Source: Eledone cirrhosa (taxonomy: Eukaryota). From it: a stretch of 64,000 nucleotides of DNA. The stretch is taken from NCBI GenBank assembly GCA_964016885.1, contig OZ024742.1, forward strand, positions 20,026,001-20,090,000. The letters are read 5' to 3'. Position numbers and translations under genes: made by a program. Shown one piece after another: positions 19,245-64,000 of this stretch (position 1 is the stretch's first letter; each line of letters begins with the position of its first letter). Under the pieces are notes generated by a model, which searched no databases, was not told the origin of the DNA, and worked only from the letters and a program-made list of their open reading frames with translations.

Positions 19245-19781
19245 GGTGGCGCATTGACAGAGTTATTAGAATGTCGAGCAGAGTGTGTTGCGCTATTCGT
19301 TCCGGCTCTCTGCTCTCTGAGATCAAATCCCGCCAACTTTGCCTTTCATCCATTTAAGGTCGATAGAAAAGCACCAGTCTAGTACTGGGGTCGATTGTTC
19401 CTCTTTATTTCTTTCTCACTTCCATTATCTCTCTTTCTCTAGGGCGGTGAATTGGCAGTATCGGTAGAGGGTCAGACATGCTTTCCAGCATAGTTACGTC
19501 CCTTTACGATCTGAGTTTAAATCCCGCCAAGGTTAACTTTGCCTTTCATCCTTACGAGGTTGATAAAATAAAGTACCAGTAATGCACTGGATAATTGCTG
19601 GCCTTGTGCCAAAAGTAGAAACAATTATCTCTCTTTCTCTATCCTTCTCTGGAAGAAATCTGCTGCATTCAGACCCGGAGAAGGGATGGGCTCTATCAGG
19701 GTTTTTTTTTAATGCCCTAGAAACGCTGTATATGAATAGGGCACCGCAAGACTCCCTTACGAGTTACGGCTCCATACATAC
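19245..19781 (+). mobile_element. Full-length tRNA-derived SINE family B (~340 bp net), carrying a nested family A SINE
   Basis: TSD aacaaagagagaa at 19232-19244 and 19782-19794; degenerate A/B boxes; ends in ccatacatac. Confidence 0.85.
19441..19623 (+). mobile_element. tRNA-derived SINE family A nested in a family B copy
   Basis: A-box tggcagtatcgg, B-box-like gagtttaaatccc, tail ggccttgtgccaaaagtagaaacaatt; TSD attatctctctttctct at 19424-19440 and 19624-19640. Confidence 0.9.
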
Positions 19782-20856: not shown

Positions 20857-20899
20857 AGTTACTATTCCTAAAAAGGTAGAGTTGTTGTTTTAACCTAGA

Positions 20900-21058
20900 A
20901 GGTCGGACGCCATGCTTTCCAGCATAGTTACGTCCCTTTACGGTCTGAGTTCAAATCCCGCCGAGGTTAACTTTGCCTTTCATCCTTACGGGGTCGATAA
21001 AATAAAGTACCAGTAATGTACTGAGTAATTGCTGGCCTTGTGCCAAAAGTAGAAACAA
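20900..21058 (+). mobile_element. SINE family A, 5'-truncated
   Basis: Near-identical to the body of 19441-19623. Confidence 0.85.
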
Positions 21059-21913: not shown

Positions 21914-22247
21914 CAAATCTACCAATCTCTAAAAACCCTACGGAGAGTACCATGAAAAAAGGTGCCCTAAAACGGAGAGAAGTAAGGCAAAATGGGTAGA
22001 TTTTACATAATTGTTTCTACTTTTTAGCACAAGGCCAGCAATTACCCAGTGCATTACTGGTACTTTATTTTATCGACCCCGTAAGGATGAAAGGCAAAGT
22101 CAACCTCGGCGGGATTGACTTTGCCTTTTCCCGGGGAGATTTTACATAATGAGAGCTATACTCATTTACACAAGAGAAGACATCTCTCAGCCACCCCAAA
22201 GTGGGTGGGGGATCTCCCCGTCCGACAGGGTAAGTTGACAGAGTCTG
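21914..22247 (-). mobile_element. MITE family D copy interrupted by a SINE A fragment (22012-22132)
   Basis: Reverse complement of the 24427-24621 copy; SINE TSD ggg(t/g)agattttacataat at 21994-22011 and 22133-22150. Confidence 0.8.
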
Positions 22248-24630: not shown

Positions 24631-24858
24631 GGTGTCTTATGTAGGCACAAGGCCAGCAATTTTTTTTTTTTGGGGGGGGGGGGGGGGGTCGATGAAATCG
24701 ACCCCAGTGCGTGACTGGTACTTTATTTTATCGACCCCGTAAGGATGAAAGGCAAAGTTAACCTCGGCGAGATTTGAACTCAGATCATAGAGGGCCGTAA
24801 CTCTATTAGGCAAAGCATGGCATCCGACCCTCTACCGATACTGCCAATCCACCGCCCT
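24631..24858 (-). mobile_element. SINE family A (long form)
   Basis: TSD aggtctggtaaataat at 24615-24630 and 24859-24874. Confidence 0.9.
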
Positions 24859-25185: not shown

Positions 25186-25375
25186 AGGGCGGTGGATTGG
25201 CAGTATCGGTAGAGGATCGGACGCCATGCTTTGCAGCAAAGAGTTACGGCCCTTAATGGTCTGAGTTCAAATCCCGCCGAGGTTAACTTTGCCTTTCATC
25301 CTTACAGGAGTCGATAAAATAAAGTACCAGTAATGTAACTGGTAAAATGCTGGCCTTGTGCCAAAAGTAGAAACA
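25186..25375 (+). mobile_element. SINE family A
   Basis: TSD attattatcta(c/a)aacgtt at 25168-25185 and 25376-25393; B-box gagttcaaatccc. Confidence 0.9.
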
Positions 25376-25660: not shown

Positions 25661-27171
25661 GTGTGACTTCACATTTTATCTATTTACTTAAACATATACA
25701 CAAACCCACTCTCCCTCTCTCTCTTAAAATGAGGTCTATTTTAAAAAATGGGAGAACGCGGAAACAAAAACAAAATAATTAGGAAAAGCCTAGCAGTTAT
25801 ATTTTAGTCACATGTCTTAATATAATATTTATTCCGATTCCTGTCGCACATATAAAGAATGATATGGTTTTTTTTATAACCTTGTGGTTTGTCTGTGAGA
25901 AAAAACTACACCAACGGCTAAACACGTGCACGACCAATCTTATATAGAGTACACGCAGACGATGGTGAAATAAACCACTTTCTACACAAAAGAAGCTCGT
26001 GAATGTACCAGTTGCTTCTTTATAAAGTCATCCATAACCTAAATACAATATATAAAATATCTACTTTGCCAGGGAAAGAAAATAAGAGAAAAGAAAAAAA
26101 AAATTTGCTTGATAGTTTGTGTGAACATTCCCACGTCTTCTTTCAATAGAATCTGATATTTTCTTTATTTCCTTGTCAGTTCAATGTGTCACATTGAATT
26201 AATCCAGGTGACTGTCAGGTCAGGCTGACTCCTTTCTTCAACACAACTTACTTTGTCCACCAACGTTCGAAGCTCAAATCATGCTGAAAATGATTTTTAT
26301 TTTCATTCCTCTGGAATCGATACCAATAAGTACCAATCATGTACTGGTATTAATTTAATCGACAAAAATCCATCTCTTACAAACCAATAAATAGCATGTA
26401 CTTGTTAATCATGTACTAAAGTTAATAAAATCGATTCCTTACAAACCGACACGCCTTTGTCAACAGGAGACGAAACAAATTTATTGTTATATCACTGTTC
26501 ACGTCTCCAATATCGATACATGAATCTATTCATTCTGTCTGTGAGTTTATAATGACCTGTAGACAGCATTGCTGAATCATTAAGAAGTTTGCTTTTCAAT
26601 CATTAGGTCCTGGGTTCACTCCTGTTGCGAAGCATTTTGTCTAAAGTCTGTCACAAGCCCGGAGGCTAATGAGGCTGGTCCTTAACCAGGTTTCATTGGC
26701 GTTAAACGACTGAAAGTACAAGTCTACCCCTAGACAGAAGACGGTTCGAGTAAAATTTGGTTGTCGGAAACTGTTTGGAAGTATATCGGATGCACCGTAT
26801 CTGTAATTTAAAGGGACAGCTTTTAGTCATATTTCCAATATTTACTTCCATTTAAAATAAAGTACCAGTTAAGTACTGAGCTGATTTGTTCAACTTTGTC
26901 CTTCTTCTAAATTTACTGGCCTTGTGCCTAAATTAAAAAACAATATTTACTTTCACTACTCGAGACATCCTACGTAGTTTTAAACAACATAATAAAGAGA
27001 ATGTTTATTATTTGTATATTAGACAGCATATTACATATTAACAATGAATCAAAATGAAAAAAAACAAAGGAAAAGCCATCCAGGCCGTCCCAACTACAAC
27101 AGGGACTGTTTAGAAAAACAGTTCATATATTACACACACGCATGTATATATAACTGTGTTTGTTTGCTTGT

Positions 27172-33241: not shown

Positions 33242-33424
33242 TGTTTCTACTTTTTGGCACAAGGCCAGCAATTATCCCAGTGTATTACTGGTACTTTATT
33301 TTATCGACCCCGTAAGGATGAAAGGCAAAGTTAACCTCGGCGGGATTTGAACTCAGTCCGTAAAGGGACGTAACTGTGCTACAAAGCATGGCGTCGGACC
33401 CTCCACCGATACTGCCAATCCACC
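33242..33424 (-). mobile_element. SINE family A
   Basis: TSD acagac(c/t)aaataat at 33228-33241 and 33425-33438. Confidence 0.9.
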
Positions 33425-33569
33425 ACAGACTAAATAATATTTGGTATCAATGGGTTAAAGACATTTGTCACATAAATTAGTGGTGCAGGTGGTGTACACA
33501 CACACAGACACACACACACACACACACGCACACATATGTATTGAGTGTATGTGAAAGACCAAAGGTCAT

Positions 33570-33670
33570 CGCCGAGGTTAACTTTACTTTTCATCCTTAC
33601 GGGGTCGATAAAATAAAGTACCAGTAATGTACTGATTAATTGCTGGCCTTGTGCCAAAAGTAGAAACAAT
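33570..33670 (+). mobile_element. SINE family A, 5'-truncated
   Basis: Starts at cgccgaggttaacttt and ends ...agaaacaattatt. Confidence 0.85.
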
Positions 33671-35455: not shown

Positions 35456-35457
35456 AA

Positions 35458-37688: not shown

Positions 37689-37883
37689 CGGCGGTGGATT
37701 GGCAGAATAGTTAGAGTGTTGAATAAATATATTGTGGTATTTTACGGTTCAAATATCATCGTGGGCAACCTTGCCTTTCATCATTTCGGGGATCGATAAA
37801 ATGAAGTACCATTAATATTCTGGGGGTTAATTCAAGTTAATTCTCCACTTTCAAATTATTGTCCTTGTGCCTAATTCAGAAAT
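37689..37883 (+). mobile_element. SINE family A, diverged
   Basis: Flanks catttac(c/a)gagaga; head and tail motifs present. Confidence 0.75.
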
Positions 37884-39184
37884 CATTTACAGAGAGAGGA
37901 TGTTCAATAGGCAAGGAAAATTAATTTCCTTAATGTGTCTGAATATTCAATTTCGAAAGCCCCTCCAACAATTTAATTGAAGTTCTTAAGCAAGCTTGTT
38001 TTATTGACTAGCTTGGAAAACTCTGCTTTTGATAGTTAGGCTTAGAATATCTGCATATTTCAACCATGGATCCCGATAATATCTTCTGGTTGGTTTGGCA
38101 AACAATCATTTCTTTGTATGTGTTGTATTTTCTGCACGACACACATGTCTAATATACTTATGTTGTGCGTAGACAATGTAGGGGGAGTCTGTTCTACACC
38201 CACTTTCTTCTTAATTTGATATAGGGTACAGTTTGATCCCTAATCACTCATTTATCCACTTGATAACATTCATGTCTTATCATTTACTGAGCTCCAAAGT
38301 TCTGTTTAGAAATTCAGTTCTGAAATGGACTCGATTAAGTTCATTCAACTCGAGAATGATTAACGATATTCCAACCCACTGACTGAATTAATTAAAATGA
38401 CGTTGTTTAAAGGGATATTTAAATGTCAATTTATTATCTTTTCTTCGTGTGAAGGATTAATCTTTTCTGTGCTGGAGATTTGTATGTGGTCAATACTTTA
38501 ATCACCAACTGGGCGGTGGACTGCAAGAAACTATTTAATGACAAACTAATGACATTGTCATATTTAACTCAAATATCGCTAAAGTCGAGTTCATCCTTCA
38601 TAATTTCAAGGCCGATGAAATTAGTACCAGTTACATATTGAGACTCTTCCTCTAAAATATCTGACCTTGATCTTTATCAATAACTCCGTGAGATCCTGTC
38701 GAATCTTTCTTTCTATTTCGTTGTTTACTTCACCTTAGAAAAGACATATCAGTAAGTGTGGGTGTGAGGTCAGTGTCACAGTACCGCAGCTTATCTTCAT
38801 TAACTTCTATGTTTATAAACAAATTTCCTCCAATATCTATAATCTAAGAGAGTAATAGTCTTAGCTACACAACAATGTGCGTCTCAATAATTCAGAAATA
38901 ACCTGTTCAGTCCTGTTTCCTCTCCAGATATCGTTGGTTAATGTTTTCTTGACGAGAACATCTCTCGCCCTTTGACAGATTATTTTAATATCTTGCTTTA
39001 TGCCACCCACCCCCACCTTCACACCCCAGGCGGTCGATTTGGTAGATTTGGATATTTGCTTCTTGTTTCGGCGTTTTGTGCTCAAATCCCGCCATAGTTC
39101 ACTTTTCCTTTCATAATTTCGGAGACGATAAATAAAGTACCAGCCCAGTGATGCTGCAATCTTCTTTCACGCCAGACGTCATAT

Positions 39185-41646: not shown

Positions 41647-41735
<89 letters not shown>

Positions 41736-41755
41736 AACGAGAAAGAGATATATGA
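41512..41755 (-). mobile_element. SINE family B tail with an expanded (GA)n
   Basis: Reverse complement reads tacgactccatcaggagttgcggggccatacata; gctgtattcagacc motif present. Confidence 0.7.
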
Positions 41756-43510: not shown

Positions 43511-43746
43511 TACCGGTCTGACCGGTACTTATCCCGGTCTGACCAACCTCCTGATTTGAGACAGACTTTAGTTAGGCAAGAAAAATATGATAAATGTAAA
43601 GTGAATTTAACAGTTTGTACTTTTAGAATAGCTAAAATGTTTTTTCTACACAGTACTTTCTTTAGTTTCAAGACCTGATATCAGATCAAGGCCCTTGTCA
43701 GACATGTATAATTCCCAAAACACCTTTCAATATATTTACATAAATA

Positions 43747-43963
43747 AAGGTGGTAGGTTGGCAGTATCAGTGGAGCGTTGGATAACATACTTTATGGCAT
43801 AGAGTTACCGCCTTTTACGATCTGAGTTCAAATCCTGCTGAGGTTAACTTTGCCTTTCATCCTTACGGGGTCGATAAACTAAAGTACCAGTAATGTACTG
43901 GGGTCGATTTAATCATCTTTCCTTTTTGCAAAAATTGTTGGCCTTGTACCTAAATCAGAAACC
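43747..43963 (+). mobile_element. SINE family A (long form)
   Basis: Flanks caatatattta(c/g)at(a/t)aat; B-box gagttcaaatcc. Confidence 0.85.
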
Positions 43964-45507: not shown

Positions 45508-48500
45508 ACCCAGACATTATCCAGCCCCTTCCAGTATAACCAGACATTAACCAGCCCCTTCCCAATATAACCAGACATTAACCAGCCCCTTCCCAATATA
45601 ACCAGACATTAACTTGCCTCTTCCCACTATAACCAGACATTATCCAGCCCCTTCCAGTATAACCAGACATTAACCAGCCCCTTCCCAATATAACCAGACA
45701 TTAACCAGCCCCTTCCCAATATAACCAGACATTAACTTGCCTCTTCCCACTATAACCAGACATTATCCAGCCCCTTCCAGTATAACCAGACATTAACCAG
45801 CCCCTTCCCAATATAACCAGACATTAACCAGCCCCTTCCCAATATAACCAGACATTAACCAGCACCTTCACAATATAACCAGACATTAACCAGCCCCTTC
45901 ACGATATAACCAGACATTAACCTGCCCCTTCCCAATATAACCAGACATTAACCTGCCCCTTCCCAATATAACCAGACATTAACCAGCCCCTTCCCAATAT
46001 AACCAGACATTAACCAGCTCCTTCCCAATATAACCAGACATTAACCAGCCCCTTCCCAGTATAACCACACATTAACCAGCCCCTTCCCAATATAACCAGA
46101 CATTAACCAGCCCCTTCCCAATATAACCAGACATTAACCTGCCCCTTCCCAATATAACCAGACATTAACCTGCCCCTTCCCAATATAACCAGACATTAAC
46201 CTGCTCCTTCCCAATATAACTAGACATTAACCTGCCCCTTCCCAATATAACCAGACATTAACCTGCTCTTTCTCAATATAACCTTACATTAACCTGCCCT
46301 TTCTCAATATAACCAGACATTAACCTGCACCTTCCCAATATAACCAGACATTAACCTGCCCCTTACAATATAACCAGATATTAACCTGCCCCTTCCCAAT
46401 ATAACCAGACATTAACCTGCCCCTTCCCAATTTAACCAGACATTAACCTGCCCTTTCTCAATATAACTACACATTAACCTGTCCCTTCCCAATATAACCA
46501 GACATTAACCTGCTCCTTCCCAATATAACTAGACATTAACCTGCCCCTTCCCAATATAACCAGACATTAACCTGCTCTTTCTCAATATAACCACACATTA
46601 ACCTGCCCTTTCTCAATATAACCAGACATTAACCTGCCCTTTCTCAATATAACTACACATTAACCTGTCCCTTCCCAATATAACCAGACATTAACCTGCC
46701 CCTTCCCAATATAACCAGACATTAACCTGCCCCTTCCCAATATAACCAGACATTAACCTGCCCCTTCCCAATATAACCAGACATTAACCTGCCCTTTCTC
46801 AATATAACCAGACATTAACCTGCCCTTTCTCAATATAACCAGACATTAACCTGCACCTTCCCAATATAACCAGACATTAACCTGCCCCTTCCCAATATAA
46901 CCAGACATTAACCTGCCCCTTCCCAATATAACCAGACATTAACCTGCCCCTTCCCAATATAACCAGACATTAACCTGCCCTTTCTCAATATAACCAGACA
47001 TTAACCTGCCCTTTCTCAATATGACCAGACATTAACCAGCCCCTTCCCAATATAACCAGACATTAACCAGCTCCTTCCCAATATAACCACACATTAACCA
47101 GCCCCTTCCCAGTATAACCACACATTAACCAGCCCCTTCCCAATATAACCAGACATTAACCAGCCCCTTACCAATATAACCAGACATTAACCACCCCCTT
47201 CCCAATATAACCAGACATTAACCAGCGCCTTACCAGTATAACCAGACATTAACCAGCCCCTTCCCAATATTACCAGACATTAACCTGCCCCTTCTCAATA
47301 TAACCAGACATTAACCATCCCCTTCCCAATATAACCAGACATTAACCAGCGCCTTACCAGTATAACCAGACATTAACCAGCCCCTTCCCAATATAACCAG
47401 ACATTAACCAGCCCCTTCCCAATATAACCAGACATTAACCAGCGCCTTACCAGTATAACCAGACAGTAACCAGCCCCTTCCCAATATTACCAGACATTAA
47501 CCTGCCCCTTCCCAATATAACCAGACATTAACCTGCCCCTTCCCAATATAACCAGACATTAACCTGTCCCTTCCCAATATAACCAGACATTAACCTGCCC
47601 TTTGTCAATAAAACCAGACATTAACTTGCCCCTTCCCAATATAACCAGACATTAACCTGCCCCTTCCCAATATAACCAGACATTAACCTGCCCTTTCTCA
47701 ATATAACCAGACATTAACCTGCCCCTTCCCAATATAACCAGACATTAACCTGCCCTTTCTCAATATAACCACACATTAACCTGCCCCTACCCAATATTAC
47801 CAGAAATTAACCTGTCCCTTCCCAATATAACCAGTCATTAACCAGCCCCTTCCCAATATAACCAGACATTAGCCTGCCCCTTCACAATATAACCAGACAT
47901 TAACCAGCCCCTTCCCAATATAACCAGACATTAACCAGCCCCTTCTCAATATAACCAGACATTAACCTGCCCTTTCTCAATATAACCAGACATTAACCTG
48001 CCCCTTCCCAATATAACCAGACATTAACCTGCCCCTTCACAATATAACCAGACATTAACCTGCCCCTTCCCAATATAACCACACATTAACCTGCCCTTTC
48101 TCAATATAACCAGACATTAACCTGCCCTTTCTCAATATAACCAGACATTAACCTGCCCCTTCCCAATATAACCAGACATTAACCTGCCCTTTCTCAATAT
48201 AACCAGACATTAACCTGCCCTTTCTCAATATAACCAGACATTAACCTGCCCCTTCCCAATATAACCACACATTAACCTGCCCTTTCTCAATATAACCAGA
48301 CATTAACCTGCCCTTTCTCAATATAACCAGACATTAACCAGCCCCTTCCCAATATAACCAGACATTAACCAGCCCCTTCTCAATATAACCAGACATTAAC
48401 CTGTCCCTTCCCAATATAACCAGACATTAACCTGCCCCTTCCCAATATAACCTAGACATTAACCTGCCCCTTCCCAATATAACCAGACATTAACCTGCCC

Positions 48501-49786
48501 CTTCCCAATATAACCAGACATTAACCTGCCCCTTCCCAATATAACCTATACATTAACCTGCCCCTTCCCAATATAACCAGACATTAACCAGCCCCTTACC
48601 AATATAACCAGACATTAACCTGCTCCTTCCCAATATAACCAGACATTAACCAGCCCCTTCCCAATATAACCAGACATTAACCTGCCCTTTCCCAATATAA
48701 CCAGACATTAACCTGCCCTTTGTCAATATAACCAGACATTAACCTGCCCCTTCTCAATATAACCAGACATTAACCTGCCCCTTCCCAATATAACCAGACA
48801 TTAACCTGCCCCTTCCCAATATAACCAGACATTAACCAGCCCCTTCCCAATATAACCAGACATTAACCTGCCCTTTTCCAATATAACCAGACATTAACCT
48901 GCCCTTTGTCAATATAACCAGACATTAACCTGCCTCTTCCCAATATAACCAGAATTAACCTGCCCCTTCCCAATATAACCATACATTAACTAGCCCCTTC
49001 CCAATATAACCAGACATTAACCTGCCCCTTCCCAATATAACCAGACATTAACCTGCCCCTTCCCTATATAACCAGACATTTACCAGCCCCTTCCCAATAT
49101 AACCAGACATTAACCTGCCCTTTCTCAATATAACCAGACATTAACCTGCCTCTTCCCAATATAACCAGACATTAACCTGCCCCTTCCCAATATAACCATA
49201 CATTAACCAGCCCCTTCCCAATATAACCAGACATTAACCTGCCCCTTCCCAATATAACCAGACATTAACCTGCCCCTTCCCAATATAACCAGACATTAAC
49301 CAGCCCCTTCCCAATATAACCAGACATTAACCTGCCCTTTCCCAATATAACCACACATTAACCAGCCCCTTCCCAATATAACCAGACATTACCCAACCCC
49401 TTCCCAATATATCCAGACATTAACCTGCCCTTTCTCAATATAACCAGACATTAACCTGCCTCTTCCCAATATAACCAGACATTAACCTGCCCTTTGTCAA
49501 TATAACCAGACATTAACCTGCCCTTTCTCAATATAACCAGACATTAACCTGCCTCTTCCCAATATAACCAGACATTAACCTGCCCTTTGTCAATATAACC
49601 AGACATTAACCTGCCCTTTCTCAATATAACCAGACATTAACCTGCCTCTTCCCAATATATCCAGACATTAACCTGCCTCTTCCCAATATAACCAGACATT
49701 AACCTGCCCCTTCCCAATATAACCAGACATTAACCAGCCCCTTCCCAATATAACCAGACATTAACCTGCCCCTTCCCAGTATAACC
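45508..49786. repeat. 31-bp satellite aaccagacattaacctgccccttcccaatat, ~138 copies
   Basis: Period of 31 bp; a 123-bp 4-mer recurs at ~45510, 45633 and 45756. Confidence 0.99.
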
Positions 49787-51822: not shown

Positions 51823-51974
51823 TATTAGCAATGGAAAATTCCAACTGAAACATTGTTTCCTCGCTCCGATTTGACAAACCAAACCCGGACCAGCCGTCTC
51901 CCCAAAACTATATATATGTGTCTATATGTACGTGTGTGTTATATATTCATTAGTATTATCATAGAGAGAGAGTT

Positions 51975-52192
51975 GGGGCGGTGGAATGGCAGAATCGGTA
52001 GAGAGTCAGACACCATGTTTTACAGCATAGAGTTACTGTCCTTTACGGTCTGAGTTCAAATCCCGCTGAGGTTAACTTTGCCTTTCATCCTTACAGGGTC
52101 GATAAAATAAAGTACCAGTCACTCACTGGGGTTGATTTAATCGACTTTCCTCTCTGCTCAAAATTGCTGGCCTTGTGCCTATATAAGAAACC
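51975..52192 (+). mobile_element. SINE family A (long form)
   Basis: TSD attatca(t/c)agagag(a/g)gagt at 51955-51973 and 52193-52211. Confidence 0.9.
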
Positions 52193-52282
52193 ATTATCAC
52201 AGAGAGGGAGTAGAAACGGTGAAGTGACGGCGACAATGTCTTGCGATAGATATTAACGTCTCTTTAGATTCTATGGTGTAAA

Positions 52283-52395
52283 GGAGCGTGGCTTAGTGGT
52301 TAGGGAATTGGATTCGCAATCGTGAGCTTACAAGTTCGATTTCCGGCCCGGGCGATGCGTTGTATCCTTGAGCAAGACAATTTGTTTTATGTTGC
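52283..52395 (+). mobile_element. SINE family C head fragment
   Basis: tggcttagtgg...aagttcgatttcc...ccttgagcaagaca. Confidence 0.7.
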
Positions 52396-52615
52396 GATCG
52401 GTAGATAGAATCAGTAATGGAAAGACCATTAAATAAATAAATAAAAAAAATGATATATGCTTTTAAAAAGGTTAAAAAACAGATAGAAATTGTTAGAATA
52501 TATATATATATATATATATATTCATTAGTTAAGCAAAACAAGACCACAAATTTCACAAGGAAGCCATTATTTAAAGATTGTCAACATAGTTGTAGTTTAA
52601 TGTAAGGAATGTAAA

Positions 52616-52650
<35 letters not shown>

Positions 52651-52699
52651 GTTTCATTTATTGGCCACAAGGGCCGACATATAGGGGACAATACAAATG

Positions 52700-55272
52700 A
52701 TGCCTGCGCATCATTAGCCACGGCATGCCCAGCCCTCCCCGTAGAGGGTGCTGGCAGCAGATGGACTGCCTCACCAGCGGAACCTGACCCCTCCACAAGA
52801 ATTTGAAGAGGAGCCGCTCCAAGATGGCGAGCCGCGAACGAGGGCAAGGGACGACGGTCAGACGGTAGTAGATGACGGACGCGATGTACGCGTTCGCCAC
52901 CTCCGCCCGACCTTTCAGTGATAGCTTCATCCCAGCCCATTTCTGGGTGAGACTGGCTACCCCGCCCGTCACCTCATCCCAATTCTTATCCACCTGGAGG
53001 TCTGGCCCGAACCAAACCCCGATCAACTTTACAGGTCCGTCCGTCCAGCGCCTAACGACGCTGTTGGACGGCATGGACTTGCCTCTCCAGGTGCCGAGTT
53101 GCAAGCCCACCGACTTTTCCGGGTTAAGTTTTGCTCCCGTCAACCTTTCATATTCCTCCAATAAGTTGCCGACCACCTCGATTTCTGATGTGTCCGACAC
53201 CATCACGGTGATGTCGTCCGCATAAGCCAACACAGCCTTTCCGCGTCCCAGTTCGAGCGGGATGCCCTGCAACAGCTCCAGCTTCCGCAGTAAAGGCTCG
53301 AGAGTCAATACAGAAGGGAGGAGAGAGGGCACCCTTGACGGACCGATCGGGAGACCTGAAACGGTTCCGAGAGGTGGCCATTAATTTTGACCATCGAGCA
53401 GGTGCCGCTGTGCATTGCAGCGATCCAGCTTCTGAAGACGGGGCCGAAGCCAGCCGCCTTGAAAACAGCCTCCAGGTACCGATGGTCGACCCTATCGAAT
53501 GCTTTCGATTGATCTAAATTGATCAGAGCCCTACCGAAGCCAGGTTTACACCCTACCCTCTCTATGATGTATCGCATTAGGTGGAGCTTGTCGTGTATGG
53601 ACCTGGTTGGGATTGCGCAAGTTTGTGCCTCCTCAACCAAATCCCCGACGACAAGCGCCAACCTCTTCGCTAACACCCTGGCCAAAATCTTAAACTCTGT
53701 GTTGAGCAGAGTTATGGGCCTGAAATTGTCTAATGTGTCCCTCTTGTTCTCGTCTTTCCTTATCAGCGTCACTACACCCCGGCTCACAGAACTGGGAATA
53801 CTCCCGTTTTGCTGCCAGTTGCAGTAGAGGGCTTAGAGGAGATTGGAGAACAAGTCTGGTATATTTACGTAAAGCTCGTAGGGCAGACCATCCAAACCGG
53901 GTGACTTGCGCCTCATGCAGCCGACAAGGGCATCCTGAATCTTGGCTGAAGTAATTGGCCTTTCGCAGCGCCCAGCGTCAGCCGTCGAGAGTTGCGGCAA
54001 GCCATCGAGGTAGGGACTGAAGTCCGCCACCATCTCTGACCCGCCACTTCCCCCGAACAACCGAGCAAAATGTTGGCGAAAGACCTCACACATCCGCTTG
54101 GAATCGCTCAGCTCGTGTCCGTCTCGGTCCGTCAAAGACCGAATCGTGGTTTTATTACTACGCTGCGCCTCTGCCACGCGGGCCCATCGAACATCTTTGG
54201 TTCCCTCGTTTCTCAGAGCACGCGCCTTAGCTCTGACAATGCAACCTTCGTGTTTCGCATTGAAGAAATGGTCTAATGTCATTCTCACCGCTAGCACGTC
54301 AGTTGCAATGCCACTACCAATAGCCTCGTCTAACTTATCTACCAACTCCCCCTCCTTTCTATTTTTCTCTAACGCTACTTCTTTGCTAAACTCTATCGAC
54401 ATTACTCTAATCTCTCTTTTGAGAGCCCCCCACCATCTATTGTTGACGACTCCCCCTGTCAACTTTTTCTTAAATAAATTGTTGACCTGGTCCCTGTAAG
54501 CCTTACGTGCCGGAAATGACATGTTTAGCTTCCAGTAACCAGGTCCTAACCTACGCGTCTTATCTAGGTCGACCATACAGATCACAAACTTCTGATCTGA
54601 ATAGGCGACCGTTTCAAAACGTGGACAGCTTACACTATTTCTGTCTATTTTCCTAATGAATATCCTGTCTATATACGATCTAGATGACCCTATGCGGTTA
54701 GTCCAGGTCCACACTGGCGCATTAGGGAAATCTAGTCGGTACCTGTCAGACAGTTAGAACTGGCTGATCAGGTTCTTGAGGTTTTTGCACCCCCCTCTCC
54801 TATCGGATACTCCCACACAGTCCCAGCATGCGTCTAAGATGCCATTCCAGTCCCCCGCTAACAGTAAAGGGCGAGACGTACCCAGAAAGGCTTCCAGGCG
54901 TCTAAAGAAGTCCGGCCGTCCTGCCCCAGTAGGAGCATAGACGGCCACCAGTCTAAAGGCACCACCTTCGTTATTGTTCACGTCCAGGACCACCAACTTC
55001 CCGTCTGGATCCCGGAAGATCGACCTTACCTCGAGTTCCAGGCCTTTCCTAAACAGCACTGCCACCCCGCCTCCCATTCCCGACCGGCTAACAGATGCAA
55101 AGATCTGATAGTCGTCGAAAATGGGGGCTAGAGCGCGCGTGTCGGAAATCCTGGTCTCGCTGCCGGCAATTACATCCATTTCTATAGATCTGAGGTCGTT
55201 GAGCAGGTGACCCTGCTTCCAGGACGATCCCAGGCCTCGAACATTTAAACATCCTACTCTTAATACGGCCAT
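52700..55272 (-). pseudogene. LINE ORF2 (APE endonuclease + reverse transcriptase), disrupted
   Basis: CLNVRGL, VYAP, AGDWN, IDRIF, SD(Q), YWKLN, KSPGLDGLP, FRPITLLN, LDQSKAFDRVDH, RQGCPLS, YADD. Confidence 0.93.
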
Positions 55273-55307
55273 GTTGGCAGATAAAAAGAGAGAGAGGAAA
55301 GGTTTAC

Positions 55308-56461
55308 TTACCTTCCGGGCTCTTGTGAAGGTCGGGTTGTTCGACCTCCATAGTTGGTGGGGTTTCTTTTGGGAACCCCTTTAAAAGTCTTGAAGTGGGT
55401 TTTACGTTCGGGGTTCCCCACGTCCCTAGGAAAGCTGTCTCGTATTTCTTTGTATAAATCGAGCGACATTCGCATCAGAACCAAATCTTCCGGCATGCGA
55501 AATGTGCTCGATTTAAAAATTTCCTCCTCTTTTTGTATATTTTCACTTCGTGTTACAAGGGCCATCAGTTCCTTGTCGGCCCTCCAGACGAGCACGAAGT
55601 TTGTATGTTTTGTTGGTGTGATTTTATTTGTTTGCGTGGCTGTGGTGGTGATAGTTTTGGTGGTGTTGTTTCGGTTGTGTCTGTGGTTTCAGTTGTTTGT
55701 GTGTATATTTGTTCTTGCGACTGTTTAGGTTGTTCGCGTTTGGGGGATCCTGGTGGTGTTGATGTTGGTGTTATTGGAGAGTTGTTTGCGTGGGTGGTGT
55801 CTGCGTTTTTTATGGTGGGTGATTTTGTGCTTTGTTGAGTTGTTTTTTTTCTTTTTGTGTTTCCTTTTTTGTATTTTGGGGGATTTTGGTTTTCCCTCAT
55901 CTTCACTACTGGTTGAAGAGGAGTCTGTGTCTGTAAGTGTGTCTGTGTGTATGTTTATGGTTTTATTGGTGTGTGTATTTTGGGAGGGAGGGGGAATTTG
56001 ACAGCTTTCTTCGTTTCCCCCCTGGGTGGTCAATGTTGGTGGTGGTCTTTCTATTGGTGTTGTTGTTGGTGGTTTTGCTGGTGCTGGTGTTGTTTGTGGT
56101 CCTCGCCCCGGCGTCGACAGAAGTGGAGCCTTTCGACCCCTTGTCTCTTTCAGCAGTTGAGGGCAGAAGGCTCGCAAATGGGTTTTTTCCCCACAAACAA
56201 AACAATGCGGCCATCCACCTTCGGTCATAATGTGAATGACCGTCCCATTCTGAAGGCGGATGTGGTCCGAGATTGTCTTCACATTTTTTTTTTGTTATCT
56301 GTATTTTTGTTGTCGCTGTTACTGTCATTTTTTTCAAAATTAGAGTTCTCATTGGTATCATTGGTGTCTTTGTTTACATTGTTTGTGGTGGTGTTTGTGT
56401 TATCAATTTGTGTTAATTTCACTGTAGCGCTCCTCTCAACTTCTACGTCGTTGTCGCGCAA
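55308..56461 (-). pseudogene. LINE ORF1 remnant
   Basis: CCHC knuckle CFVCGEKTHLRAFC; low-complexity T/P/K region; frameshifted; lies directly upstream of ORF2. Confidence 0.75.
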
Positions 56462-56677
56462 CAGCAGAAATATCGCTGAGGGGCGTGGCTCAGCCTTGTT
56501 TTTTTTTTAAAGTTCAAATATTTGGGCCAAAAGACCCAAATATTATACTTTCCCCTTCACAGGGCAAAGTCTAAGGGCTTAAATCCCTTACACAACAAGA
56601 AATATTTAACAACAAATAATTTTAACAGGCAAATAAAGCGACTTACTGGGAGCGAGCAAAATACGTCCGATTAGACC

Positions 56678-56738
<61 letters not shown>

Positions 56739-57733
56739 TATAGGGAAGAAGACGCACGAGGTGGTAGAAGGTCATGAAATCGCTCCCGTAAGTTTTTGAT
56801 TTTTAACATATTTAAATCAATTGTGAAATAACAATTCTTAGTACAAATGTTGCATAATCCACCGAATGAAGTCCCATAAAATTTCGGATCCATATTATAT
56901 TGTTATATCGCTCAAATATTCAATTTTGTATTATATATTTTGTATTCAAAAAAAAGAAAATGGTTATAAATGGAAGAAAACACCCTCTGTCTACACTATA
57001 TAGAACAGCCAAATAACAGCAATTTCACCAACACCGGAAAGTTGATACACCACCTATCCCATCACACTAAATATAACAGCCAGATAACGGCAATTTCACC
57101 ACCACCCTCATCAATCCCGGCATGATAATAATAATTACTATTATTATTGTCTCAAATTTTAACAAAATGTTTAATTCCAATTTTACGGGAATATGTCAAC
57201 ACAATATATATTAAACATACGAACACAAACTCATAGATACTACATATCACAAAACCCAGTAACCACAACGCCACCGCCGCCACCACCCCATCCATCATCT
57301 TGCTACCACTATCCCATCGCCGCCGCCACCACTCCTTCATTGCTACCACCACTATTCCCCTGTTAACTTGAGAGAGAAAGGGGAAGGTGGCAGTATCACT
57401 AGACAAGGGAGAGGCTAGCAAAAGATATACATAGATTGACTTAGTGACCTGGCCACCGGCCAAACGTCAACATCAACAACTATGGGACTGCTGGCTCACC
57501 CCTTCCTCACCAACAATATAAAAAGCCCCGGCACCACCACCGACATAGTCAACAACAATAACAGGCAACTACAGCTAAAAGTATATTATATTATTGTAAT
57601 GCACTGGGTGATTGCTGGCCTTGTGCTTGAAGTGGAGACACTTATTAATAATTTCATTCTTAAGCCACGCAATGCTCACATTAAGGAACCACTCATGATA
57701 ATAACAATTTAAAAAAAAACAACAAAAAGAAAA

Positions 57734-60700
57734 CCCCGTGACCAAGAAATACCGGGATGGCGGCCGGCGGGGAATAGCCGTGTCTCTAGGGGAGAACGAC
57801 CCCTCTAGTCTTGGTTGACACTCGTTCTAGAAGTGGTAACACGAAATGATTACCCCTTGACGGATAAGGATAAAACGCGACAAAATAAAGTAAATGTCTA
57901 ATGATAAAATCTCATACCGGATCGGCCGTCACCCGGGTAAAAAAGGGCCGCGTCCCTCAGAGAGGAACCAGACTGGGGTCGAAAAATCAGCTAATGGTTC
58001 AAACCTTCCCATCACTTCGGAGCTGGAGACCTCCCATAACCGGAATACTCCTACTGTTGGCCCTCCATGCTCACCACCAAGAAATCCAAAGAAAAAGAGA
58101 GAAAAATGGTCAAGGGAAGATAATAAAGAAGTCCTTGAGGCTTTCTACACGGCCATGTACTACCCATCAAATACATCGAATACAGAACAGACATATATCA
58201 ACTGGAAAAAGAAACATACCGAAAACAGAGGCTATATTGACAGTAACAAACTAGCCAATATACGAAGAAATATTGTAAGAAAAAAGTTACTAACTGATAT
58301 AGAAATTGATCAGATCAAGCTATTAGCACAAAGTCAGCGAAGGGAAAATGAAACATGTGTCAGTGAAAACGAGGTAAACTGTAACACTTCGAACCCCAGG
58401 GTTGGGGCGGAATCACTGGCAACAGAACAAATTAAAGAAAGGATCGAAAAAGTGGAGGGAGTGCATGCTCAGGATGAAACTCCAAATGAAAATAATGAGA
58501 TCGTAAATGATAAAGAAATGAATGAGAATGAACTTGCCAACTTGAAGGATGAAATTATGATCGAATGGATGAAAATGAAAGAATCTGACATGGGGCAACG
58601 AGACACCCTCCCTAAGATCCAGAACTCCAAACAGAACCAAAAGATAATACACAAGACTAACATAATTCTCAAAAACATTATCATCACAAACAAACTAAAC
58701 ATTACTGATTTAAATCATCTCTATTATGCATCGGCTAAAGTCACCACTCACTTATGTGGAGTGAAGATGAAAAAACAAAGGAATTCCCACAAGAAATCTA
58801 CTTGGTAAGAGAACATCAATCGCCAAATAAACCTTCTCCGATCTGACATAGAAATTTTAACAAACTATAAAGTAGGTGAACATGTTAAACAAACTAAACT
58901 TAAAAAATTGAAAAAACAAGTACAGTATAAAATCAACATGTGACATAGACATGCTGATAGAAATAATCAAGCAAAAAGTGTCGGCCAAAGCTGCTCGTAT
59001 AAGGCGCTTTGAAAAACGATCTAGATTCTATAAGGACAATAATATGTTCAAAAACAACCAAAGAAACTTCTACAGAAAAATTGGTAAGTCAACAATAACT
59101 GCTAAATCAATACCACCCAAGGAGGAAGTGCAAGAATTCTGGGAAAAGATCTGGGCCGAAGAAAAAGTTCATAACATACATGCCCCATGGATAGACAGAC
59201 AAATGAATGATACAGCTCACCTTGAGGAACAAATATGGGAAAATATAACAGTTGAACAGTTGCGCTTGGCTCTAAGAAAAACCAGCAAATGGAAATCCCC
59301 AGGAAAAGACAAAATACAAAACTTTTGGATAAATGCCTTCACAGAGTCTCATGAGCTGTTAGCCCAACTTTACAATGAAATAGTTAAGGAGCCAGAAAAG
59401 ATACCACCATGGCTAGTTAACGGCATTACATTCCTGCTTCCGAAGAATGATGAGACAAACAATCCCAAAAATTACAGACCGATAACTTGCTTGACCACAA
59501 TGTATAAAATTTTAACATCAGTCCTAACTGAATACACATATGACCACCTGATAACAAATGACCTATTTCCCATTGAGCAGAAAGGGTGTAAACGAGGCTC
59601 ATATGGCTGTAAGGATCAGCTTCTGGTTAACAAAATGATACTGGAAGATTGTCATAATAGACACAAAAATCTATCGATTGCTTGGATAGATTATAAAAAA
59701 GCATTCGATAGTTTGCCACGCAGTTGGATTGAAAAATGTTTAGAGATTTTCAAAATATCCCCCGTTGTCAGGAGGTTTTTGTCATTCAGTATGAAGACAT
59801 GGAAAACGACACTCCTTTTGAATAGTGAAACAAAATCACTGGAAGCTGGAGAAGTTAATATTAATTGTGGAATTTTTCAGGGTGATTCTTTATCACCGCT
59901 TTTATTCTGCATCGCACTTATACCATTAAGTAAAATGCTCAATGAAACAAAACATGAATATAAAGTCTATGACAAAACCATTAATCACCTGTTCTACATG
60001 GATGACCTGAAACTATTTGCAAAAAATGATGAACAATTCCACTGTGGGGCAGTTCAGTGATGACATTAAAATGGAGTTTGGACTAGATAAATGTGCCAAA
60101 GCAACGTTCACCAGAGGAAAGCTGCTGAAGAGTTCAGACATTAATCTTGATCGGGGGAACGTGATAAGAGAACTTGATCAAGAAAAAACTTACAAATATC
60201 TAGGTGTTTGTGAAGGAGACGGAATCAAGCACTCGACAATGAGGGAAAGGATAAGGAAGGAATGTTACCGCAGAGTAAGAGCAATCTTAAGAACGGAATT
60301 GAATGCATAGGATCGATGCCATAAACACGCTTGCCATACCAGTAGTAACCTACAGTTACAATGTCATCAACTGGTCAAGCACAGAGATCCGTAGGCTCGA
60401 TACAAAAATTCGAAAATTCTTAACCATGCACAGAATGCATCACCCTAAGGCAGATATAGATAGAATATATCTCCCTAGGAAAGGAGGACGTGGGTTAATC
60501 CAGTTAGACATTGCGTTGAAAACTGCAACAATTGGATTATCTACATATCTAAGGGAATCACATGATTGGATGATCAAACTCGTTTTGAAACACGAAAGCA
60601 TCAAAAGATCATATTCCATTACAAAAGATGCACAAAGATACAGTAATGGACTACAAATTTCAGAAGTCCCATTTACTGCTGAAATGGAAGACACAGAAAA

Positions 60701-61666
60701 AGCAAAGCAGGTAAAAGTAACTGCAAAGAAAGAATTGCTACAGAAACTGGCTAAGAAATGGCAAGAAAAGCCTCTGTATGGAAAATACCCAGAGCGAGCT
60801 AACAATCCTGATGTTGACAAAACTTTAACCCATCAGTGGTTGGCATCCTCTGGACTGAAATCGGAGACTGAAGGACTGATTATATCAGCACAAGATCAGT
60901 GTCTGCCAACAAAAAATTACCAAGCCAACATAATAAAAAATGGATGCAGCCCATTATGCCGTGTATGCAAAAAACAACCAGAGACCATTGACCATATAAT
61001 TTCAATGTGCAGTCCTATAGCTCCAACCGAATACCTAAACAGGCATGACAGAGCTGCACAATACATACATTGGATAATGTGTAAGCATTTTGACCTGCCC
61101 CATCAAAAGAATTGGTGGGAGCATCAACCACCTCCCATACTTGAAAAAGATCACATCTCAATCTTGTGGAACTTTAGCATCCAAACAGACCGAAAAATAG
61201 ATGCAAATAGACCTGATATAATATTGAAGGACTTTAAAAAGAGGGTATGTCTGCTAATTGATATGTCTGTCCCAATAGACAAGAATGTATCTATAAAAAC
61301 ATTTGAAAAATTGAGCAAGTATAAGGACCTGGAGATAGAAATTGGAAAAATGTGGAAATTGAGAACTAAAACAATACCAGTGGTTGTAGGCGCTCTGGGA
61401 ATGATACCTAAGGGGTCTAATGATTACTTATCGCAGATCCCAGGAAACCCGCGTATAGGAGAAATACAAAAGATAGTACTAATGGGAACTGCCCATATAC
61501 TAAGGAAGATTCTGTCAATATAAGTACATCACAAGTCTAAACACTAAAGATGCATGTGTGAGTATGTATGTTCTTCCTTGAACATGGCGGACCTTGTTGT
61601 CTCTTGAGGTCACTGGTTGTGACTTGGTGATAACTCGTATGAACATAAAGCAAGATAAATGCAACT

Positions 61667-61667
<1 letters not shown>
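57734..61667 (+). mobile_element. R4/Dong-clade LINE (RT + restriction-like endonuclease), near full length, ending in (TAA)n
   Basis: Single-ORF layout with an N-terminal KWSREDN motif; no APE domain; 3' end abuts (TAA)n. Confidence 0.88.
57894..61523 (+). pseudogene. R4/Dong ORF with a stop and frameshifts
   Basis: YRPITCL, EQKG, WIDYKKAFDS, GIFQGDSLSP, YMDD, CRVC..ETIDHIISMC, RHD, RPDII, IDMSVP, K..KY. Confidence 0.93.
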
Positions 61668-61699
<32 letters not shown>

Positions 61700-64000
61700 T
61701 TTTCTTTATTAACCACAAGGGTTTACATAAAGTAGACATTAAGGACAGTACAGGACAATACAGGACGGTACAAATGGGCATTTCTGCGTGTAAAAAAAAA
61801 CAGAGGATGAAATAAAATAACAAAGAAAAATTCCCCAATAGGGGGGAGACTTCCGAGGTACATTTGTGGAGAAAGCCCATTAAAAGACCACAGTGACCCT
61901 GACCACCAGGGCAAGTGCCCTCTCCCAGTTTTCTACCCTTAATTTACAGACACATACTCAGAGAAGACCCATTCATTCGGGCCATACTTGCTTCTCTCAC
62001 CCATCTTTCAACAAAATGCTGGGAATAGAGCACTTCCCTCTCTACCCTGATTTTGCTTTTCAAATGAAATTTGAAAAAGTTAATCAAGGCATCACCGAAG
62101 AGGTAAGTGCTCGTCTTCAGCCCTTTCAAACGTGTCCACCATACTATCTCTTTCGCCATGGCCACCAGACAGATAAAAACTGCCTGCCCTTCCCGGCTAA
62201 AGGAAGGGGTCGGGGCAATCCTCACGATGGACTCAGCTGATAGCTGGATCCGTCCTACACGTGACAGCAGGTGTTCGACATAAACCCACAAGTCAGCAAT
62301 GCTCGGACACTGGACGAGTGCGTGCAGGACGGTTTCCTCGCCCTGTGCGCATCTCGGACATGCCCGGCTGACGGCACCTCCATGCCTGTAAAGTTTATCC
62401 CGAACTGGCAAAGCACCCCGGTAGCACTGCCAGGCCAGGGATTTCTGGAAGTTGTCCATAGGCCCCGGCCGGAAAGTCCTTCCGAAGAGATTGGCTAGTT
62501 GATTTTCGTCGACGCCTAGAGTTTCTCCAAGTACGTCGTCGCTCTTCCCCTCCACTAATCCCCTATAGAACGCCAAGGTGGAGTTTCCACCGATCACATT
62601 GCCCGATTGGTCGAGGGCTGTGAGCGCCTGAAGACATTCCAATCTCCAAGCGCTCCCTCTCGGTCTTCGCTTGACCCAGGACTGCAGCTCCGTCAAGGAG
62701 ACGAGCTGGGGAAAAACGTGTCTTGCAAACGGCGACCAGACCTGATCACCGTCGAGGAAGAGGTGGAGATGTCGTAGCCTGAGCGCGTGTCTGCGCATCA
62801 TCAGCCACGGCATGCCCAGCCCTCCACGTAGCGGGTGTTGACAGCAGATGGACCGCCTGACCATCGGAGCGCGTCCCTTCCACAAGAAGCGAAAGAGCAA
62901 ACGCTCCAGCGCAGTCAGGCGGGGCTTAGGACAAGGTACGACGGTCAGGCGGTAGTAGATGACGGATGCGATGTACGCATTCGCCACCTCCGCTCGACCT
63001 TTCAGGGATAGCTTCCTCTCGGCCCATTTCTGGGTGAGAGAAGCCACCCTGCCCGTCACCTCGTCCCAGTTTTTGTCCGTCTGGAGGTCTGGACCGAACC
63101 AGACACCTAGCAATTTAACCGGTCCGTCCGTCCAGCGCCCGACGATGCTGTTGGACGGCATGGAACTGCCTCTCCAGGTGCCGAGCTGCAGGCCCACTGA
63201 CTTTTCCTGGTTGATCATTGCTCCTGTCACCGCTTCGTATTCTCTTAGTGTAGTGCCGATCGCCTCGATGTGTTTGGCGTTCGACACCACTACGGTGACA
63301 TCGTCGGCATATGCTGACACGGATCTTCCGCATCCTAGTTCGCGCGGGACCCCCCTCAACGTCTCCAGTTTGTGCAGTAATGGCTCGAGAGTCAATACGT
63401 ACAATAGGGACGAGAGGGGACATCCTTGGCGGACCGAGCGCATGATGTTGAACGGTTCCGAAAGGTGACCGTTCACTCTCACTACAGAGCAGATGTCGCT
63501 GTGCATAGCAGCGATCCAGCCTCTGAAGACGGGCCCAAAGCCAGCCGCCCTCAGGACCGCCGCTAGGTAACGATGGTCGACCCCATCGAAGGCTTTCGAC
63601 TGATCTAAATTGATCAAAGATCCACCCGTGCCAGGTTCCCTAGCTCCCCTCTCTACGATGTATCGCATGAGGTGGAGGTTGTCGTGGATGGATCTGTCGG
63701 GAATGGCGCATGTCTGTGCCTCTCCCACCAGACCACCAACGACAAGCGCCAACCTCTTTGCTAGCACCTTGGCCAAAATCTTGAACTCTGTGTTTAGCAG
63801 AGTTATGGGCCTAAAATTATCTATGTTATCCCCCTTGTTCGGATCCTTTCTCAGCAGCGCCACCGCTCCTCGGCTCACAGAGCTGGGAATTCTCCCGTTC
63901 TGTTGCCAGTTACAGTAGACGTCCGCCAAGAGGCCTCCGAACAAGTCTGGCATTTGTACGTAAAGTTCATAGGGCAGACCATCCAAACCAGGCGATTTAC
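61668..64000 (-). mobile_element. L1/Tx1-clade LINE 3' half with an (ATT)n tail; continues beyond the window
   Basis: Clear paralogue of 52617-56500; ~245-bp 3' UTR with aataaa. Confidence 0.92.
61944..64000 (-). CDS. LINE ORF2 reverse transcriptase with C-terminal CCHC domain (partial, uninterrupted in window)
   Basis: 680 aa open; RPITLLN, DQSKAFD, RQGCPLS, YADD, CPRC..ETVLHALVQC. Confidence 0.9.
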   Translation of the reverse strand, partial: KSPGLDGLPYELYVQMPDLFGGLLADVYCNWQQNGRIPSSVSRGAVALLRKDPNKGDNIDNFRPITLLNTEFKILAKVLAKRLALVVGGLVGEAQTCAIPDRSIHDNLHLMRYIVERGAREPGTGGSLINLDQSKAFDGVDHRYLAAVLRAAGFGPVFRGWIAAMHSDICSVVRVNGHLSEPFNIMRSVRQGCPLSSLLYVLTLEPLLHKLETLRGVPRELGCGRSVSAYADDVTVVVSNAKHIEAIGTTLREYEAVTGAMINQEKSVGLQLGTWRGSSMPSNSIVGRWTDGPVKLLGVWFGPDLQTDKNWDEVTGRVASLTQKWAERKLSLKGRAEVANAYIASVIYYRLTVVPCPKPRLTALERLLFRFLWKGRAPMVRRSICCQHPLRGGLGMPWLMMRRHALRLRHLHLFLDGDQVWSPFARHVFPQLVSLTELQSWVKRRPRGSAWRLECLQALTALDQSGNVIGGNSTLAFYRGLVEGKSDDVLGETLGVDENQLANLFGRTFRPGPMDNFQKSLAWQCYRGALPVRDKLYRHGGAVSRACPRCAQGEETVLHALVQCPSIADLWVYVEHLLSRVGRIQLSAESIVRIAPTPSFSREGQAVFICLVAMAKEIVWWTRLKGLKTSTYLFGDALINFFKFHLKSKIRVEREVLYSQHFVERWVREASMARMNGSSLSMCL

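Follow-up and report, generated by a model that had tools for sequence, protein, structure and literature searches.

We analysed a 64,000-nt stretch of DNA from the octopod Eledone cirrhosa (GenBank assembly GCA_964016885.1, contig OZ024742.1, positions 20,026,001 to 20,090,000 of the forward strand), which is called the window here and to which all coordinates refer. The window is rich in repeats and carries two minus-strand copies of a long interspersed element (LINE) of the L1/Tx1 group, one plus-strand LINE that we take from its motifs to be Dong/R4-like, and several families of short interspersed elements (SINEs). One of these families, which we call SINE-A, shares its last ~25 nt with the 3′ ends of the two L1/Tx1-group copies, and the origin and possible function of this tail are the subject of this report. 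The LINEs, with their open reading frames (ORFs), APE endonuclease and reverse transcriptase (RT) domains, are arranged as follows.

52650..56500, minus strand: L1/Tx1-group LINE copy 1, decayed, with an ORF1 remnant, APE and RT in broken frames
55725-56294, minus strand: ORF1 remnant of copy 1 with a C-x2-C-x4-H-x4-C knuckle, read directly
54757-55380, minus strand: APE of copy 1 (Exo_endo_phos, E 1e-8)
53305-53832 and 52701-53380, minus strand: RT of copy 1 in broken frames
52650..52675, minus strand: terminal block of copy 1 (stem GGCC 52675-52672, loop CTTGT 52671-52667, stem GGCC 52666-52663)
52617..52649, minus strand: (ATT)11 behind copy 1, either tail or target microsatellite
61699..64000, minus strand: L1/Tx1-group LINE copy 2, continuing past the window edge
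61699..61723, minus strand: terminal block of copy 2 (stem AACC 61723-61720, loop CTTGT 61719-61715, stem GGTT 61714-61711)
61669..61698, minus strand: (ATT)10 behind copy 2, common, tail to tail, with the Dong/R4-like element, on whose strand it is (TAA)n
57894..61667, plus strand: Dong/R4-like LINE, with an RT closest to R2 among solved structures; used as negative control

The two L1/Tx1-group copies are 79% identical across 1215 nt. Copy 1 may begin at about 56500 or 56677. Relative to copy 2 it lacks ~1.04 kb at ~52700, comprising the final part of ORF2 and the bulk of the 3′ untranslated region (UTR), yet its terminal ~52 nt remain; an internal deletion would leave such a structure, and so would a template jump in the course of reverse transcription. 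In copy 2, ORF2 is open over 684 amino acids, extends beyond the window, ends at 61944 and matches RVT_1 (E 8e-28) and zf-RVT (E 4e-8), followed by a 3′ UTR of 245 nt. Exactly as stated in an initial annotation made from the sequence of this DNA, copy 1 terminates in GGCCCTTGTGGCCAATAAATGAAACC (52675-52650, minus strand) and then (ATT)11, and copy 2 in AACCCTTGTGGTTAATAAAGAAAAC (61723-61699, minus strand) and then (ATT)10. The stem in each terminal block is followed by a spacer with AATAAA, which is A-rich in copy 1, and the final bases are GAAACC in copy 1 and GAAAAC in copy 2. Only three runs of at least four ATT/AAT units exist in the window, all at or near LINE ends, and both L1/Tx1-group ends adjoin ATT runs; in the Tx1 clade a preference for particular target sequences is common, though not universal. 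The Dong/R4-like LINE and copy 2 lie tail to tail around one (TAA)10/(ATT)10 run, and one of them was probably inserted into the tail of the other. An (AAT)20 run at 56678-56737 was not counted as the 5′ target half of copy 1, and may belong to another element because a 13-14 bp inverted repeat flanks it; this arrangement (56640-56795) suggests a small separate element beside the 5′ end of copy 1.

Together the copies display an APE, RT and zf-RVT architecture in Pfam searches, with Exo_endo_phos present in copy 1 and RVT_1 and zf-RVT in copy 2. When compared with solved structures, in a set without CR1, L2 and RTE references, the RT matches human L1 ORF2p at E 1e-34 and R2 at E 1e-18. Among the matches listed, the best named relative of copy 2 ORF2 is a protein of Argonauta hians (68% over 98% of the 684 residues). 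An RT tree with three rows from the window and 32 of 240 listed matches, the named ones included (35 rows in all), built without a curated Tx1 or vertebrate L1 reference, places both copies and the Argonauta protein in a four-row group with support 100/99. This group is nested in a 22-row group (90/93, under the starred threshold) that includes a TX1-named coral protein and fish and frog RBD_ZCCHC3 proteins. By these comparisons, membership of the L1 group is secure, and a place on the Tx1 side of that group is likely. The ORF1 of the Tx1 clade carries RNA-binding domains and a CCHC knuckle. Pfam returns neither a zf-CCHC nor an RBD match for the ORF1 remnant of copy 1, though the knuckle is readable by eye, and a search for ORF1 homologues identified none among 22 candidates. 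Among the protein matches, P0127-P0240 represent a large family with an ORF2 of ~1150 amino acids, about 40-50% identical, that is sister to the octopod lineage (100/100), and one close ORF2 match (69%) carries a bacterial label that is probably due to contamination.

SINE-A is represented in the window by 12 tail-bearing copies, listed here with their target-site duplications (TSDs).

19442..19623, plus strand: full length, short form; 18-bp TSD starting ATTAT; sits inside a SINE-B copy
20896..21057, plus strand: 5′-truncated; TSD not found
22012..22132, minus strand: 5′-truncated; 18-bp TSD starting ATTAT
24631..24858, minus strand: full length, long form; 16-bp TSD starting ATTATT
25187..25375, plus strand: full length, short form; 19-bp TSD starting ATTATTAT
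26848..26941, plus strand: 5′-truncated, long form; 11-bp TSD starting AATAT
33242..33424, minus strand: near full length, short form; 14-bp TSD starting ATTATT
33569..33668, plus strand: 3′ half; TSD not found; paralogous flank at 36676
37689..37884, plus strand: older long form; 14-bp TSD starting ATTTA; one inner hairpin pair broken
43746..43963, plus strand: full length, long form; 17-bp TSD starting AATAT; closing pair broken
51974..52192, plus strand: full length, long form; 19-bp TSD starting ATTAT; A box at +14, B box at +81
57598..57640, plus strand: 3′ fragment, diverged; TSD not found

These elements are non-coding and measure 182-228 nt at full length, with 74-93% pairwise identity among seven of them, and the short and long forms differ by ~30-40 nt just before the tail. 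Judged by the general consensus for A and B boxes, an A-box-like motif is located at +8 to +14 in six of the seven full-length copies and a B-box-like motif is present in all seven, at a long spacing of 62-67 nt. The head is not recognised as a tRNA gene by ARAGORN, and a search of 18400-64000 gave no Rfam tRNA match at E≤0.5. On this sequence evidence SINE-A is a tRNA-type SINE, whose boxes would be used for transcription by RNA polymerase III (Pol III). A bipartite origin of its body from 5′ and 3′ LINE parts was rejected: BLASTN yields no match under E 0.9 to either L1/Tx1 copy, neither of which has an intact 5′ end present. In the copy at 22012..22132, a short stretch of the copy's core is repeated in inverted orientation at nucleotides 22116-22132 (minus strand), at the 5′ junction within the TSD, and resembles a product of twin priming or fold-back; a weaker inverted piece of similar kind lies at ~33540-33570.

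We evaluated the tail with a two-block weight matrix built from the 12 SINE-A tails, excluding the ATT bases, and scanned positions 18451-64000 with 75 nt around each SINE tail and a satellite (1-18450) omitted. Of the 89,268 non-SINE positions scored, the best is the very base on which copy 1 ends, and the final base of copy 2 ranks 21st. An end-anchored score computed with four of the 12 tails is reached by 0 of 1000 dinucleotide shuffles for copy 1 and by 9 of 1000 for copy 2, and by 0 of 982 and 1 of 982, respectively, of the genomic positions preceding AWTAW. Averaged over all 12 tails, this type of score is 21.5 for copy 1, 17.5 for copy 2 and 4.7 for the Dong/R4-like LINE, which was rejected as a partner of SINE-A on this value. 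A 14/15 match between the SINE core and the 5′ UTR of the Dong/R4-like LINE was disregarded (E 0.23-0.27), and scans of bacterial and archaeal contigs for stray copies returned 0 loci.

The tail match is real and statistically supported beyond chance, but short. The initial annotation had proposed that the 3′ end of SINE-A matches the LINE ends, and had named similarity no better than to shuffled sequence as grounds for abandoning the idea. The likeness does exceed both the shuffled and the genomic null, and the proposed match stands by profile and shuffles for ~25 nt only, with 13-20 identities. The two SINE-A endings quoted in that annotation are exact in four and one of the 12 copies, the remaining copies being variants.

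An ungapped alignment of the core in 14 rows (the 12 SINE-A tails and two LINE ends) reveals an invariant CTTGT loop located 16-17 nt from the end of the element. Four base pairs enclose it, the letters of which vary while pairing stays: GGCC/GGCC in copy 1, AACC/GGTT in copy 2 and TGGC/GCCA in short-form SINE-A. Copies 1 and 2 differ at four of the eight stem letters, with pairing kept by all four changes. RNAalifold predicts the three inner pairs unprompted, and across the 4-pair helix 48 of 56 cells are paired, with double changes in three of the four pairs. The covariation score is 0.319, as compared with 0.148 for shuffled alignments (1/500) and at most 0.124 in slid registers. A Watson-Crick stem of 4 bp is formed at none of 74 background CTTGT sites (two form 3 bp), at both LINE ends and at five of the 12 SINE ends, eight of which have a stem of at least 3 bp. 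An extra lower stem of 6 bp is predicted for copy 2. Thermodynamic stability was dropped as evidence for the hairpin, as it is not significant in four of five tails. This putative covarying hairpin, which was not part of the initial annotation, strengthens the case for an L1/Tx1 partner, and its signature appears to be unreported.

TSDs of 11-19 bp (median 17) flank nine of the 12 SINE-A copies. Six begin with ATTAT (background 0.0021 per position, binomial 8e-15), two with AATAT and one with ATTTA, and a pyrimidine precedes all nine (background about 0.63, p 0.016). The initial annotation had SINE-A ending in (ATT)n, but there is no such array: in nine of the 12 copies the 3′ TSD copy begins directly after GAAAC(A/C), the match to (ATT)n extends for only 1-8 nt, and none of the nine copies with a TSD has an ATT unit outside it. 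Because the TSD begins with ATTAT, the apparent repeat is mostly target DNA. For the copy at 33569-33668, comparison with the paralogous flank at 36676 suggests that one ATT unit was added, and therefore the SINE-A RNA probably ends in a short (AUU)n. Reasoning from the mechanism of target-primed reverse transcription, we read the TSD pattern as consistent with nicking of the bottom strand at ATAAT/purine and pairing between primer and tail. Since the two TSD copies differ at only nine of 146 bases and copy 2 ORF2 is open, the activities of SINE-A and the LINE could overlap in time.

We propose that SINE-A owes its last ~25 nt to the capture of a LINE 3′ end, in the direction from LINE to SINE, and that the donor belonged to the L1/Tx1-group lineage of copies 1 and 2, probably as a sister family and not as either copy itself. 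The captured piece would serve as a recognition signal: a CUUGU loop on a 4-bp stem, placed 16-17 nt before the element terminus, with a short (AUU)n behind it. Pol III would transcribe SINE-A from the A and B boxes that are observed in its copies. The ORF2 protein (ORF2p) of the LINE would then bind the hairpin by reading the loop and requiring only that the stem pairs, as suggested by the covariation and by analogy with ZfL2 (PMC4176376, excerpt). From the target bias, it seems likely that the APE domain would nick the bottom strand at 5′-ATAAT/purine, after which the released ATAAT-3′OH end would anneal to the leading AUUAU in the RNA tail and act as primer for reverse transcription. A second nick 11-19 nt further would yield TSDs that begin with ATTAT, which is the pattern found. 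We assign a probability of about 0.5 to this reading, in which an L1/Tx1 ORF2p recognises the hairpin in the manner of stringent LINEs and primes on ATTAT targets. An L1/Tx1 origin of the SINE-A tail, in whatever form, is considerably easier to accept and we regard it as probable. Tentatively, at somewhat short of even odds, we offer the wider statement that an animal L1/Tx1 lineage kept stringent hairpin recognition, with a CUUGU loop, a 4-bp stem and priming by AUU repeats on ATTAT, and that it mobilises a tRNA-type SINE in this way.

A number of observations weigh against hairpin recognition by the LINE. Identities amount to 14-20 of 26 with copy 1 (the best, 20/26, being that of the SINE-A copy at 51974..52192) and 13-17 of 25-26 with copy 2, and identity is at background (~0.2-0.27) beyond 10 nt upstream of the loop anchor. 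Tails shared by bivalve SINEs and LINEs span 35-61 bp at 72-95% (PMC11481361, excerpt), and that of SINE-A is shorter and weaker. Unanchored BLASTN (word 7, E≤10) with two flank-trimmed SINE copies against the LINE copies does not report the tail, which with the ATT bases kept is found at E=0.015 in copy 1 only. The Dong end is also similar (score 16) to the A-rich final 13 nt of copy 1, copy 2 alone performs modestly (9/1000 shuffles; 21st of 89,268), and only two related LINE copies are available. The hairpin was picked after the sequences had been inspected, three sequence types underlie its covariation, and 32 of 500 shuffles reach its number of double-change pairs. Its outer pair is open in six of the 12 SINE copies and two copies break an inner pair. 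Folding z-scores are -0.59 for copy 1, -2.05 for copy 2 and -0.72, -0.13 and -1.43 for three SINE tails, such that folding energy is unremarkable in four of five tails, and a different hairpin is predicted in two of the three SINE tails. A search for a unique-sequence TSD of copy 1 against 52700-58500 yields nothing above score 7, and none is available for copy 2, which leaves the window and has its ATT run in common with the Dong-like element.

Some of these observations would be expected if the tail had been derived from L1/Tx1 by template switching and is now vestigial. A relaxed ORF2p would then need only the pairing of (AUU)n with nicked ATAAT, much as human L1 needs only poly(A). The similarity is indeed short and eroded, the SINE tails have weak folding energies and alternative folds, long-form copies have lost the outer pair, and the strong microhomology between target and tail may be sufficient for priming. 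However, the loop is invariant in 14 of 14 rows while the stem undergoes paired changes both between the LINE copies and between LINE and SINE, the distance from loop to end is constant, and SINE subforms with different spacers retain the hairpin core. We consider a vestigial tail unlikely, at somewhat more than one chance in five.

It is also conceivable, if improbable, that a LINE from a different clade, absent from the window, is the real partner, and that the likeness arose by tail exchange among LINEs or through a common recognition motif. The partner ranking covers the LINEs of the window, where just one non-L1 LINE could be tested, and a better partner might exist genome-wide. Recently active RTE, CR1, Dong-R4, Hero and L1-Tx1 families are reported from Octopus vulgaris (PMC13282606, Table 1, excerpt), the known partners of mollusc SINEs are CR1, CR1-Zenon, L2 and Nimb (PMC11481361, PMC4824008, PMC4758252, all in excerpt), and RTE pieces occur within Ceph-SINEs (PMC5786205, excerpt). 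TSDs are 7-18 bp (mode 13-15) for the L1 clade and 7-15 bp (mode 10-12) for RTE (PMC6007223, excerpt), and the full lengths of SINE-A TSDs favour L1. Length is not decisive for the clade, because TSDs trimmed of their ATT-matching bases measure 8-16 bp (median 11) and fit the RTE range. Among the nine TSDs, a small sample, the T-run ~10 nt upstream that is a signature of RTE (PMC6007223, excerpt) is not consistently present. Furthermore, the one other clade tested, Dong/R4-like, fails to match. One SINE-A copy carries a 5′ inversion, a feature familiar from L1. The partner reading of the initial annotation is partly supported: the LINEs do belong to the L1/Tx1 group, the mean scores and the covarying hairpin favour them as partner, and TSD length is ambiguous.

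Chance combined with convergence, in which A-rich ends near a poly(A) signal come to look alike and a 7-mer is picked post hoc, strikes us as a poor explanation. The comparison was made post hoc, BLASTN misses the match without the ATT bases, copy 2 is modest when taken alone, and the A-rich end resembles Dong as well. Nevertheless, with SINE copies set aside, the top profile match coincides precisely with the base that ends a LINE, and loop, register, distance to the end and ATT junction are all the same, with paired stem changes. Acquisition of a SINE end by the LINE copies as 3′ chimeras is highly improbable: copy 1 does have a break 52 nt from its end, but copies 1 and 2 have common 3′ UTR sequence upstream of the hairpin that is absent from SINE-A, and the SINE body is absent from both LINE 3′ UTRs.

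Three L1-tailed SINEs are known, from maize and Chlamydomonas, and on these rests the open proposal that the L1 group ancestrally recognised specific tails, with mammalian poly(A) as a later relaxation (PMC3472496). Like ZmSINE2 and ZmSINE3 with LINE1-1_ZM in maize and SINEX-3_CR with L1-1_CR in Chlamydomonas, SINE-A is a tRNA-type SINE with a 3′ end in common with an L1-clade LINE, and the monocot pair likewise has a hairpin with a conserved loop and 3′ flank and a variable, compensating stem (PMC3472496, PMC3747384). SINE-A is unlike the plant and algal pairs in its animal host, the Tx1-like branch of the LINE and its loop sequence, and its block is ~25 nt rather than ~50 and ~80 nt, with an (ATT) junction instead of poly(A) or poly(T). 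In crocodilians, mobilisation by a Tx1 family, Tx1-Mar, has been suggested for SINEU, as we propose for SINE-A, and SINEU and Tx1-Mar have a target preference in common (PMC4494074, excerpt). SINEU has U1/U2 heads and is linked by target choice, a LINE with the SINEU-1 3′ terminus being undetected in that excerpt, whereas SINE-A has A and B boxes and a shared tail. The pairing that the initial annotation called unusual is thus rare, but it has precedents in maize, Chlamydomonas and crocodilians. Tail sharing between a SINE and a LINE is a known phenomenon, here on a LINE branch where it is rare, and for the L1 group we found it described only in plants and a green alga.

Kibi, Koshi and the crocodilian Tx1 relatives are Tx1-branch elements located beside simple repeats (PMC4494074, excerpt), and both LINE ends here adjoin (ATT)n. 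The Kibi/Koshi-type targets are (TC)n, (TTC)n, (TTCC)n and (TTTC)n in the same source, whereas our LINE, for which no TSD was recovered, is seen to adjoin (ATT)n. A model for the mechanism is provided by ZfL2-1/ZfL2-2 and UnaL2/UnaSINE, in which recognition is specific for the loop, the stem can be replaced as long as it pairs, and a short tandem repeat is terminal (PMC4176376, excerpt). Those elements belong to the L2 clade and were tested experimentally, whereas the SINE-A hairpin is a prediction from sequence and has a stem of only 4 bp.

The mollusc superfamilies CORE, V, Deu/Nin, Meta/MESC and Ceph, and octopus OK, OR1 and OR2, have a tRNA head and core with exchanged tails, as do SINE-A and SINE-B. 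Their reported partners are CR1, CR1-Zenon, L2, Nimb or RTE, in contrast to the L1/Tx1 LINE proposed for SINE-A. Octopus vulgaris has 80 L1-Tx1 families, 13 of them recently active, and its SINEs constitute 11.6% of the genome and are mostly unclassified among recent insertions; no SINE/LINE partner analysis was found in the excerpt of that repeat study (PMC13282606). SINEBase, as excerpted in PMC3531059, lists LINE-derived regions for Bov-B, CR1 and L2 only. An exact short-motif search for the SINE-A core in the supplements of PMC4824008, PMC5786205 and PMC4758252 (all but one file) gave none. Our searches of the open-licence literature listed no animal tRNA-SINE with an L1/Tx1 tail; Repbase, Dfam, SINEBase or Ohshima and Okada 1994 could already name SINE-A or its partner.

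The sister family SINE-B is present as at least five pieces (18416-18661, 19244-19781, 37145-37425, and, on the minus strand, 41506-41752 and 42735-42974). It has the same head and core as SINE-A and a different, longer tail that ends in a stem-loop and short repeat, and this shows that SINE-A acquired its L1/Tx1 tail, or swapped another for it, as a module, the direction of the change being presumed. The partner LINE of SINE-B is not in the window, and SINE-B was rejected as a second L1/Tx1 client because two of its tails score 2-4 against all three LINE ends. At 1-18430 there is a 17-bp satellite of ~1084 copies, the unit of which matches a segment of the SINE core and which runs straight into a SINE-B body at 18416; this 18-kb array is apparently derived from a SINE. 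A third tRNA-headed SINE, with a stretch that we presume to be CORE-like, is found at 43264-43520 and 52282-52400 and has no BLASTN match to the LINE tails. Elsewhere, 33757-36162 holds a DNA transposon remnant that we take to be hAT-like (a Pfam match is absent). It has terminal inverted repeats, is flanked on either side by an 8-bp duplication, and contains transposase-like frames as well as a 40-bp minisatellite. Minisatellite arrays occupy 27967-31348 (44 bp), 39433-41487 (48 bp) and 45510-49786 (31 bp).

If the SINE-A tail is vestigial, or its partner belongs to another clade, the finding reduces to ordinary SINE/LINE annotation. If hairpin recognition by the L1/Tx1 LINE is correct, stringent recognition in the L1 group would extend from green plants and algae to animals, and a minimal signal of ~25 nt would be at hand for asking whether poly(A)-only recognition is a derived state. 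A case on the animal Tx1 side would serve as an independent test of ancestral RNA-tail recognition, with a 13-nt hairpin that has natural compensatory variants and is easily mutated. Stringent recognition also predicts that few processed pseudogenes would derive from this LINE lineage, and part of the SINE load of octopod genomes would acquire an engine.

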